From Eledone cirrhosa (taxonomy: Eukaryota): a stretch of 64,000 nucleotides of DNA. The notes beneath the pieces were generated by a model. It ran no database searches, was not told the origin of the DNA, and worked only from the letters and a program-made list of their open reading frames with translations. The stretch is from positions 288,176,001-288,240,000 of the forward strand of contig OZ024742.1 of NCBI GenBank assembly GCA_964016885.1, written 5' to 3'. The translations under genes and the position numbers were made by a program. Shown in pieces: positions 18,159 through 39,069 of this stretch. Within the stretch, counting starts at the first letter, position 1; every line of letters begins with the position of its first letter.

Positions 18159-18217
18159 TGACTTTCCTGATGATTTCTTAAGAATGAAACAGTTCTAGTC
18201 AGTTCCTGTAGAAGTCA
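18159..18217 (+). ncRNA. Type I hammerhead ribozyme motif (compact family)
   Basis: tgact(t)tc CTGATGA tttc-ttaa-gaat GAAA cag...ctg TA gaagtca; all three stems can form; predicted cleavage after 18210. Confidence 0.75.
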
Positions 18218-19539
18218 TTTCTATAATGAAATAAAGATATATCATCATCATCCTCATGGTCGGATCCATATAGACCAAGTCAGTACTGAAGCAAAATCAC
18301 TGATCTCCCAGGCAGACCAGGGACCTGTGCGCTTATCTATCACATTCTATATAGATATATTATCCCTTTGTGGTAAATAAAGAAATCATTATTATTTACA
18401 GGGTCGATAGAATAAAGCACCAGTAATGCACTAGAATAATTGTCGGCCTTGTGCCAAAAGTAGAATCAATTATCAATATAGTAGATTGGCAGTATCAGTA
18501 GAGGCGTTGGACACCAAGCTTCATGGCATAAAGCTATGGCCCTTTGTTCTGAGTTCAAATCTTTCAAGGTTAGCTTTGCCTATCATCCAATAAAATAAAC
18601 TACCAGTGATGCACGGGTCTATTTAATCGACTTTCCTCTACTCTAAAATTTTTAGACTGGTACCTAAATCAGAAATCATTATAATTATTATAAGACCTGG
18701 TTTAAGCTTGACCATTGGGCTTACATAACTTACAATAATATCTACACTATTTTCTTAATTGTAGAGAATCTTGAAGTGAACAATAGTCTTCTTAATTAGT
18801 AACATCTTTATATTTATATATGAAGACTGGGTAGACCACTGATCAGGGTAGAGTTCAAAATGACCAGTTAGTTTGCAGGCTTGCCAAAATGGAGTGAGCT
18901 CTCCATTGGGATTATACTAATTACTCTCTCTCACTATATATATATATTATATTATTTATTTTTAAGTTCATACATGGAACAAAGGTGCTACCTAAGGTTT
19001 CAAGGCCCAATATTGACCATACCTCCAGAATATAAGAGAGGTCAAAATTGTGACCTATCTTCGGGTACTTATACAAGTTTATTGAGCACGTTTTCATAAC
19101 TATGGATATTGCTATACACACACACACACACACATATATATATATACAAAGTTGTCAGTACCATATTTTTTTTTCCCCTGGTTTGTGTATTTATTCATAA
19201 CATAATGACAGTACAGTGATATTATCCATGATTTATGAGAATATTTTTCTCAACTATTTATCCCCAATGTCATATAAATCAATAGTATCTTTTCTACATT
19301 ACAGACATAGTACAAGTATTATGAAATAATGTTTTTATTGAAAACGATAATAATAATGATCACAATAGTAAGTTATGTTACCAAGGTTAATATTGTAGTT
19401 ATATAAAATATAGTGTCGATAAGTGGCTATCACACTGTTACATTCTGTATGGGTATCTTTATCATCATCATATAAAATTCTTTTTTCATAGAATTTCTCT
19501 TTTGTATGAAGATATACATGACATTTTTAGATGATGATT

Positions 19540-21280
19540 TAATAAATATCAGTTATGACTTTTTTCCTGCATTGAATGTGTTTACCTAAGCTAGTAGCCC
19601 GAGTGAATGATTTACCACAGATATCACAGTGATATGGATTCTCTCCTGCATGAATTCATTTGTGAACAGTTAATTCACCATTTTGAGTGAATGATTTACC
19701 ACAGATATCACAGTGGTATGGTTTCTCTCTGGTATATATATGTTTGTGAGGAATGAATTTTTTTTTTTTTTTTTTTACACAAAATAATTTATCACATATT
19801 ACAGTGATACGGTTTCAATCTTGTATGACTACGTGTGTGTATAGTTAAGTCAGAATATTGAGAAAAGGATTTACTATATTTATCACAATGATATGGTGTC
19901 TTTCCTGTATGACTGTGTTTATGATTAGTTACAGGGTTTCTCTCCAGTATGTTGAATCATTACTTTGAGACAATGATTTACCTTAGATATCAGTGATATG
20001 GCTTCTCTCCTGCATGAATATGTTTATGAATACTAAGCTATTTAGTGCATAAAATGATTTACCACAGATATGGAGGCACATGGCTTAGTGGTTAGAGCAT
20101 TGGCCTTGCAATTGAAAGGTTGTGAGTTCAATTCTCAGACCGGGTGATGTGTTGTTTCCTTGAGCAAGATACTTTATTTCACATTGCTCCAGTTTACTCA
20201 GCTGTAGAAATGAGATGATAGGGACCCCAGTCCCTATCATTCCACTGCAAAGTGGTCATGGAGGTGCCACGGCAAAAAAGCACCCAGCACTCACTGTAAA
20301 TGAGGTTGGTGTTAGGAAGGGCATCCAGCTGTAGAAATCAAGCCAGAATCAGTTCCCGTTCCACCCTTGCAAGCAGGGAAAAAGCAGACGTAAAATGAAA
20401 TGAATTGAAATAATATGGGGTTTTTTTCATTGTATGAATATGTTAGTGTGTAGTCAAGTTGCCTCTTTGAGAAATGGTTTATCACAGATATCACAGTAAT
20501 ATTGTTTCTCTCCTTTATAACCATGCTTATGGATAGTTAAGTTGACTGTCCCAGAGAATGATTTATCACATATCATCATCATCATCATCATCACCACCCT
20601 TTAACATTCATTTATCAATGCTAGCAAAAATTAGATGAGTTGTCCAGATGTGAGCCAAGTGAGATCAGATGACTGTGTCTTGCTCATACTGATATAATTT
20701 ACCTCTTGTATGAGAATATTTGTGTTTAGTGAAATTGCTACTTGCAGATTTATCTCCTGTATGAAAACACCTGTGAGTTGTTAAAACACCTGCTTTGAAA
20801 AAATGACTTTATGCAGATATCACAGTGGTATGATATTTTCCCTATCACTTTCAGCCTGGTCCTCATATAATTTGCTTTCCAAGTTGTTTCTTCACTCAAC
20901 ACAATATATGGATGTTTCATTCTTTTTCTCATCAAAGAAATATTGCTACTTCTGTATTTCCATCATCTGAAGATGTGATCTCTTCTGTAAATGTGTCTCA
21001 ATTTAATTTGAATGGAAAATCATCTTGCACACATTCCAGACAGTGAAGTAAATAATCTTAGATGAAATATTTCACAGTAATTCTACCATAGATTTATATA
21101 AACAGTGTTATATCTGTTTTGTGAAACATCTTCCTTTAGTTTTTAAAAGATGATGTATCTCAAGTAAATAATTCTGTTATGCCAATGTCATCTGATATTC
21201 TGAAATAACAAAGATAACAGTATAAGATAAAGTGGATACTTAAAATGTAGAGATTCAACAGTGGAAATTTTACTACATTG
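19540..21280 (-). pseudogene. Decayed C2H2 zinc-finger gene
   Basis: Many reverse-strand gatttaccacagatatcacagtgatatgg finger repeats with frameshifts and stops, SINE insertions, and the shared acceptor (AG at 21200-21201). Confidence 0.85.
20072..20410 (+). mobile_element. tRNA-derived SINE with RTE-LINE 3' tail
   Basis: A box (tggcttagtgg) and B box (gagttcaattc), central core, tail ...ggaagggcatccagctgtagaaa... shared with the RTE 3' UTR; near-identical to 34634-34977; interrupts a pseudogene finger. Confidence 0.8.
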
Positions 21281-21509
21281 CTACATTCATAAACTGTAGA
21301 TATAAACATTTAGCAAAACAATTAAAACTTTATTTTTAAACAAGAGTAATAAGTTAAGAGATCAAACTTGATATGCCAAGGAAATTTCAAACTCAATTGT
21401 TTCCACAATCTGTAAATAGAACAAACTGATTTATGCAAGGTGTACGTCATCAGGTACATTAAACTCAAAATATTATACGTGCATAAGGTGAAAGAGCATA
21501 AATAAAACT

Positions 21510-38700: not shown

Positions 38701-39010
38701 CACCACCCTTTCTCTGTAAAGTTATGTTGGTCCATCAACATCCAGTCCAAAATAAAAGGTTGTGTAGGTGTCACAACAAAAAAACACAGTCCACGCTGTA
38801 ATGTGGCCATGTAGGTAACATAATAAAACCTCCCAGTCCACAATGTAAATGTAGTTGGTGTTAGGAAGGGCATCCAGCCGTAGAAAACCTGCCAGACAGT
38901 CCTATACGAGCGAGACATGGTCACCCGACCAATCTTGCCTCAAGTGGGACAATTCCCATCTAAACCCATGCTAGCGTGGAAGATAGCCGTTAAACGATGA
39001 TGATGATGAT
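35715..39010 (+). mobile_element. Near full-length degraded RTE LINE
   Basis: VQETRW, GVGI, ISAYAPQ, GDLNGHVG endonuclease motifs; KAPGP, NYRGI, HQGSVLSP, YADD; (GAT)n tail; many stops and frameshifts. Confidence 0.92.
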
Positions 39011-39020
39011 ATTCTAGTCA

Positions 39021-39069
39021 GCTTCCTGATGATTTCTCCCGAATGAAACAATTTTAGTCCTGTAGAAGC
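39021..39069 (+). ncRNA. Type I hammerhead ribozyme motif (compact family, second copy)
   Basis: gcttc CTGATGA tttc-tccc-gaat GAAA ca...tg TA gaagc; perfect 5-bp stem I. Confidence 0.72.

Follow-up and report, generated by a model that had tools for sequence, protein, structure and literature searches.

Hammerhead motifs and other features of the window

The window, a stretch of 64,000 nucleotides from Eledone cirrhosa (contig OZ024742.1, positions 288,176,001 to 288,240,000), displays C2H2 zinc-finger (ZNF) array frames at 14360-16204 (plus strand), 32056-33498 and 46832-48364 (both minus strand), and a 910-codon open frame at 2-2731 (plus strand), which we take to resemble an LTR-retrotransposon pol. 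Its only Hydra-type ORF match (about 29.8-31.6 kb) is a broken RT/EN fragment at 29827-31630 on the minus strand, which is about 40% identical to both P0001 and P0002, two proteins considered below. Two hammerhead motifs, each adjoined by no Hydra-type ORF, had been proposed from the letters alone (hereafter, the sequence-only reading), together with the absence of an attached RT ORF. Direct reading and a generic type I descriptor recover both motifs, and the cut sites predicted after 18210 and 39064 had been placed correctly. The family hammerhead shows the type I arrangement of a CUGANGA...GAAA...UH core and three helices, with C3 at 18167, U10.1/U11.1 at 18174/18185 and the GUA triplet with A17 at 18210 in copy 1, and the equivalent positions at 39026, 39033/39044 and 39064 in copy 2. 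In the window, the descriptor recovers both copies plus three further hammerhead-like motifs; four matches have a stem I of at least 4 bp, against none in 196 and one in 4 of 200 shuffles. The Rfam scan of the window copies, which had been proposed as a check, gave no hammerhead model match up to E=5. The parts of the two copies are:

18024-18158 (+): remnant of the pLTR upstream of copy 1, C-rich, on the promoter side; relatives match at 74-86% over positions 25-240 of the query 18000-18245 (BLAST)
18131-18139 (+): TATA box TATAAATAC, its first T 36 nt upstream of C3, the position of the motif in 41 of the 55 contexts retaining a TATA
18159-18217 (+): copy 1, type I hammerhead with a U bulge in stem I, U·U at 18174/18185 and a predicted cut after 18210
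18201-18205 (+): private 5-nt duplication in loop III of copy 1, weakening the dimer palindrome, as judged from loop length in relatives and self-duplex energy
18218-18240 (+): short 3′ tail of copy 1, which stops at the short end of the family beside another repeat
39008-39020 (+): 5′ junction of copy 2, with a (GAT)n-tailed repeat, then TTCTAGTC, then stem I
39021-39069 (+): copy 2, type I hammerhead with U·U at 39033/39044 and a predicted cut after 39064
39070-39136 (+): tail part of the pLTR at copy 2, sharing homology with the pre-ORF tail of intact elements (95% over 121 nt to locus L123)

The TATA box at 18131, the family tail of about 70 nt on the 3′ side of copy 2 and the deviation of both copies from the family in helix III had escaped the sequence-only reading. 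The change it described in stem I is real (A-U in copy 1 against G-C in copy 2, if a single bulged U is allowed in the former), as is the difference between the stem II loops. Across 16 copies, 96.6% of the cells pair and two of the 13 pairs, each in stem I, are altered on both strands, although the rows are related (about two to three events) and three are misaligned at the bulge. The stem I covariation is compensatory between lineages, whereas helices II and III are nearly invariant and hence uninformative on compensation. The U·U pair at 10.1-11.1 is present in both copies as described, but it is a known feature: it has been reported in natural hammerheads (PMC3088659), opens helix II in 14 of the 25 Hydra-clade families listed in File S2 of PMC8557442 (our hand count) and recurs in the axolotl HHR_Amex2 of the metazoan non-LTR retrozymes.

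The word TTCTAGTCAG, which occurs exactly twice in the window (18193 and 39012), had been taken as a hint of a tandem or slipped parent unit. Both copies do carry it, but no such unit needs to be invoked. In copy 1, it arises from the private duplication, since loop III is 8 nt long in 97 of 100 listed relatives and 13 nt long in none of those listed. For copy 2, AGTCAGCTTC belongs to the native sequence upstream (as in L128) and follows a short junction. The shared word is thus a by-product of duplication in one copy and of native sequence plus a short junction in the other. The TTCTAGTC preceding copy 2 may be filler added at the junction or, alternatively, a native AGTC with further letters alike by chance; in the latter case, the homology of copy 2 reaches -10.

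In the family, helix III with its loop is computed to form a self-duplex of -12.8 kcal/mol, against -1.4 as a hairpin. The duplex falls to -4.5 kcal/mol with the duplication in copy 1 and to -1.3 with the two private changes that copy 2 has in its helix III and loop III (at 39051 and 39054). As 13% of loop III shuffles pair equally well, the dimer palindrome alone is not significant. The hammerhead fold lies above the best predicted fold by 6.4 kcal/mol in copy 1 and 4.3 kcal/mol in copy 2, and both copies, with their private helix III damage, are probably devoid of cleavage. Among 41 young copies picked by the tail alone, 32 have an intact core, and substitutions number 8 in 450 core positions versus 17 in 695 tail positions. 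The core of inserted copies thus mutates about as often as the tail, which points to selection on the parents and not on the inserted copies; the preferential core conservation relative to flanks that had been offered as a test is not seen. Inserted copies, including both in the window, decay neutrally, and the two window copies by themselves are ordinary repeat debris.

The parent Penelope-like element

The sequence-only reading had favored a ribozyme-bearing retroelement, either retrozyme-like or a solo repeat of a Penelope-like element (PLE), that it could not assign. Ribozyme-bearing it is, but only the second option survives, and an assignment is at hand: the same hammerhead flanks intact Hydra-clade RT/GIY-YIG frames, and the copy 1 lineage meets such an ORF in locus L299. 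On sequence homology, we identify the window motifs as decayed pLTR remnants of a Hydra-clade PLE. The intact element is ordered as hammerhead, tail, RT/GIY-YIG ORF, a long microsatellite-rich 3′ region, TATA, hammerhead, tail and (TA)n. In L040, a hammerhead is followed by the tail and then the reading frame, and 15 of the 30 loci found with the L040 RT piece have a sense hammerhead located 537-544 nt upstream of that query. A 758-codon open frame stands between two hammerheads in 8 of 10 stretches, which were selected for long frames. Hammerhead-bearing pLTRs occur in both direct and inverted arrangement, as in EN+ PLEs.

The parent protein (P0002) combines RT with a GIY-YIG domain at its C terminus in a single ORF, the EN+ PLE configuration that is found in the parent element but not in the window copies, and displays YRDDG and VY...YIG motifs. 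The C-terminal GIY-YIG and the RW(K/R), DKT, CxCX5C, CxxC and CxH motifs of the Hydra clade (Craig et al. 2021, PMC8557442) are all represented, the latter as IRWRAFF (RWR), SDKT, CNCLNKETC, CDLCISE and CMH, respectively, the last two flanking the conserved E and N. The clade further shares the (TA)n targets (5 of 5 measured intact elements end in (TA)n), the type I hammerhead and, in 14 of 25 listed families, the U·U pair. It differs in length, as its elements are generally below 3 kb whereas the five measured here span 4,797-5,688 nt from hammerhead to hammerhead (4.8-5.7 kb), the short length being a stated tendency and not diagnostic. It also differs in loop III, which is 1-3 nt in the listed families versus 8 nt with an internal CUAG here. 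In searches with P0002, the Pfam GIY-YIG match is weak (E 0.069, below the cut-off), no Pfam RT family matched and a PDB sequence search returned nothing below E 0.1; its Atlas neighbors carry HTH_animal, GIY-YIG and RVT_1.

Copy 1 is tied to this element by L299, an 86% relative that meets a Hydra-type ORF some 210 nt further downstream. For copy 2, identity to young-family loci that are pLTRs of the ORF-bearing type (L013, L015 and L007) is 88-89% over about 115 nt; no run-in to the ORF was seen at any of 30 sampled loci of its own sub-lineage, so its link to the element rests on DNA homology. P0001 was rejected as the parent because its family copy L046 carries a different, long-helix-II hammerhead upstream. 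Nor is the element the published Hydra-1_Obim, which has a different protein and a different hammerhead. P0001 (L038:3129-5594) is itself another Hydra-type PLE, for which 55 of 55 scored matches are near full-length at 98-100% identity, most of them without stops.

Copy ends, the TATA box and the template RNA

To locate where copies begin and end, we used the first 90 of 11,904 matches to the tail, without requiring the core (our samples being those listed first for contig C1, a few of them duplicates); 88 aligned, L192 and L232 being dropped for want of a usable alignment. Counted from C3, 39 of the 88 5′ ends lie within -7 to +3, only 3 in the 93 nt from -100 to -8, and 5 in +36 to +42, so that the peak looked for at the cleavage site (+39) is absent from this sample. 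Put differently, of 60 copies reaching +3, 39 stop within these 11 nt versus 6.5% expected from the downstream rate (the copies are not fully independent). An inverted arm of the same hammerhead is joined in 35 of those 39 copies. The most frequent end points of 81 young-type arms are -5 (13) and -6 (7), and the four arms that end at -7 share microhomology with the other arm. A single tight head-to-head pattern has 1,641 genome matches, some counted on both strands. The 3′ ends, scored in 42 copies, fall at +60 in 18 and at +129 in 6, giving the optional 3′ tail of EN+ PLEs, here of about 70 nt versus 30-40. A 3′ splice site at -4 (CAG|ATTC) was rejected as the cause of the 5′ ends, as the arms include -5 and -6 and copy 1 is without the AG.

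Transcription usually starts about 30 nt downstream of a TATA box, and CCAGATT matches the initiator consensus. Of 214 contexts, 55 have a TATA motif no more than 70 nt upstream; in 41 of these it stands at -36, over three different spacers, including that of window copy 1, whose start site we infer to be near 18160-18161. In copies of the copy 2 (GC-stem) lineage joined straight to (TA)n, the base before -6 (i.e., -7) is G in 63 of 90, with 12 A, 11 T and 4 C (a hand count of 100 listed of 103 rows, from which 10 overlapping rows were dropped to leave 90 distinct loci). By contrast, copies of the same type with their full upstream sequence have C at -7 in 7 of 7, and the background of G is 3-19%. 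An extra untemplated 5′ G in L1/SVA insertions has been attributed to copying of the m7G cap (PMC3287187), and we read the extra G at -7 as a comparable cap signature. Only in the GC-stem lineage is this signature clean; fold-back on stem I is a second possible source of an extra G in the young lineage. Taken together, the 5′ pile-up, the lack of a cut-site peak, the TATA 36 nt upstream and the extra G suggest that the templates were likely capped, uncleaved sense RNAs.

The same identity of the element could be retained with the 5′ pile-up ascribed to RT stalling or snap-back at stem I, or to self-priming by antisense RNA, instead of a transcription start. Junction microhomology is indeed frequent, the stem I strands permit fold-back (L185, L017) and the head-to-head palindromes of rotifer PLEs have been ascribed to antisense self-priming (PMC3846280). 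Yet neither process predicts the extra G of the (TA)n-joined copies (63/90) or the fixed TATA spacing over unrelated spacers, and fold-back would not add G in the GC lineage, where stem I is mostly followed by A or T; we regard this account as improbable.

We therefore return to the capped template. RNA polymerase II would start about 30 nt past the TATA, at -6 from C3, and the element protein would nick (TA)n and prime reverse transcription at the tail sites near +60 or +129. When the tail nearest the 5′ end of the RNA is used, only about 65-135 nt would be copied, through the uncut cleavage site and up to the cap. Head-to-head pairs would be two such products joined, or one folding back. Selection would maintain the ribozyme only in the parent elements, where dimers may be cleaved via the quasi-palindromic helix III. 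From the sequence evidence, we consider it very probable that both window motifs are mutated, ORF-less terminal-repeat remnants of a Hydra-clade PLE and that the short copies were reverse-transcribed from capped, uncut RNA starting at the 5′ edge of the hammerhead. We also hold it likely, with somewhat less assurance, that the phasing of the TATA sets the start of the capped transcript at the first pair of the hammerhead, and that uncut sense RNA was copied from cap to tail to yield the thousands of insertions of 65-135 nt, which are often head-to-head. This proposal would speak against antisense self-priming and against cleavage as the template-making step. The ribozyme would act elsewhere (e.g., end-to-end dimer cleavage, circularization or decapping), and a sister retrozyme of some 15,000 units would ride the same machinery.

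Related hammerhead families and known systems

Exact genomic matches to the core pattern CTGATGATTTC-N3-8-GAATGAAAC number 36,129, against zero for the reversed control. Part of these belong to the sister family, a 310-nt tandem repeat with a nearly identical core and a different stem I and helix III, which counts 15,050 units by its own pattern; this leaves more than about 21,000 for the window type. The pattern of the copy 2 lineage has 1,322 exact matches and that of the 3′ strand of stem I of copy 1 has 990. The sister family (e.g., L035, at G000:C1:5386000-5395999, and L036) features a U·U helix II, a helix III that is palindromic (ACGCGU) and an extended stem I, and its units often lie in tandem arrays of the head-to-head kind. 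The arms of the arrays have two end points, separated by about 35 nt and located in (TA)n-like sequence; this PLE-type tail suggests mobilization by a PLE. Within the young family, about twelve hammerheads stand in tandem at a spacing of about 1.07-1.11 kb (G000:C1:83679806-83691725), and the unequal counts on the two strands (3,211 vs 1,510) are a hint of larger arrays. A second hammerhead family in the window, with a long helix II region and a palindromic AUAUGU-type helix III, is seen at 24031 (+), 62546 (-) and 62650 (+), the latter two forming a head-to-head pair. A third hammerhead-like family (L135:7817, L135:8238 and L136:8747) has a U·U closing helix II and a palindromic ACUAGU helix III.

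The 310-nt family, as a tandem monomer with a hammerhead, fits the metazoan non-LTR retrozymes (PMC7229834; bioRxiv 10.64898/2026.07.22.740005). Its near-identical core and U·U helix II over 15,050 units, along with the lack of an ORF among 30 loci of the copy 2 sub-lineage, could suggest that the window copies are solo monomers of a non-autonomous circular retrozyme without a coding parent. We deem this very unlikely: the window copies have only about 28 nt in common with the 310-mer, are solo and not tandem monomers of about 300 nt, and share helix III, the tail and (in copy 1) the TATA with the ORF-bearing pLTR, and for copy 1 the L299 ORF largely refutes it. In contrast to the retrozymes, they are pLTR fragments of a coding element. 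Cleavage of ZNF read-through RNA by copy 1, raised by the sequence-only reading from its sense orientation 2 kb past the ZNF stop, is unlikely in view of the two AATAAA between that stop and copy 1 and of a fold 6.4 kcal/mol above the best. That the host co-opted copy 1 to cut such RNA of the neighboring zinc-finger gene, for which its orientation and intact core could speak, is scarcely credible, given these two AATAAA, the private loop III duplication, the unfavorable fold, the commonness of intact cores (32/41 young copies) and the expectation of such placements with more than 20,000 family copies.

Compared with the minimal and dimeric hammerheads of PLEs (Cervera and De la Peña 2014, PMC4209133), the family shares the preponderance of solo copies, opposite-strand pairs, rarity of ORF linkage and a palindromic helix III. 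It differs in a 3-bp helix II set on U·U, where those described have a conserved G10.1-C11.1 and a long helix II, and in a helix III that is a 16-nt quasi-palindrome. Promoter elements within the pLTR are also known from Penelope of D. virilis (PMC2377424), which has a TATA-less internal promoter, and Pen2a of Adineta vaga (PMC3846280), with a putative TATA and Inr, whereas here a TATA on the sense strand appears phased to the first pair of the ribozyme. A mechanistic parallel is offered by the Anolis carolinensis element Poseidon (Frangieh et al. 2024, PMC11167929), in which RT starts at two internal sites to leave an optional tail, both strands are nicked and unprocessed RNA is used for insertion. 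In vitro, unprocessed RNA is the main insertion substrate of this anole PLE and both strands are extended. Poseidon belongs to another clade and was characterized biochemically, whereas the tail here is of about 70 nt and the behavior is read from the genomic cap G and breakpoints. The capped, uncut-RNA model thus agrees with the anole work and disagrees with antisense self-priming.

In the literature that we searched, outside subscription journals and Repbase, no paper reporting the family or the promoter-ribozyme phasing was found. What is new is the family-wide start-site and cap signature, the U·U pair and PLE hammerheads being already known. The family is of importance for two questions that published accounts call unresolved (PMC8557442, PMC3846280, PMC11167929), namely what PLE hammerheads do and how the head-to-head junctions originate. 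This young family, which has intact frames, a cap signature and copies in the tens of thousands, yields one sharp prediction, namely that its transcripts would have a capped start at -6.
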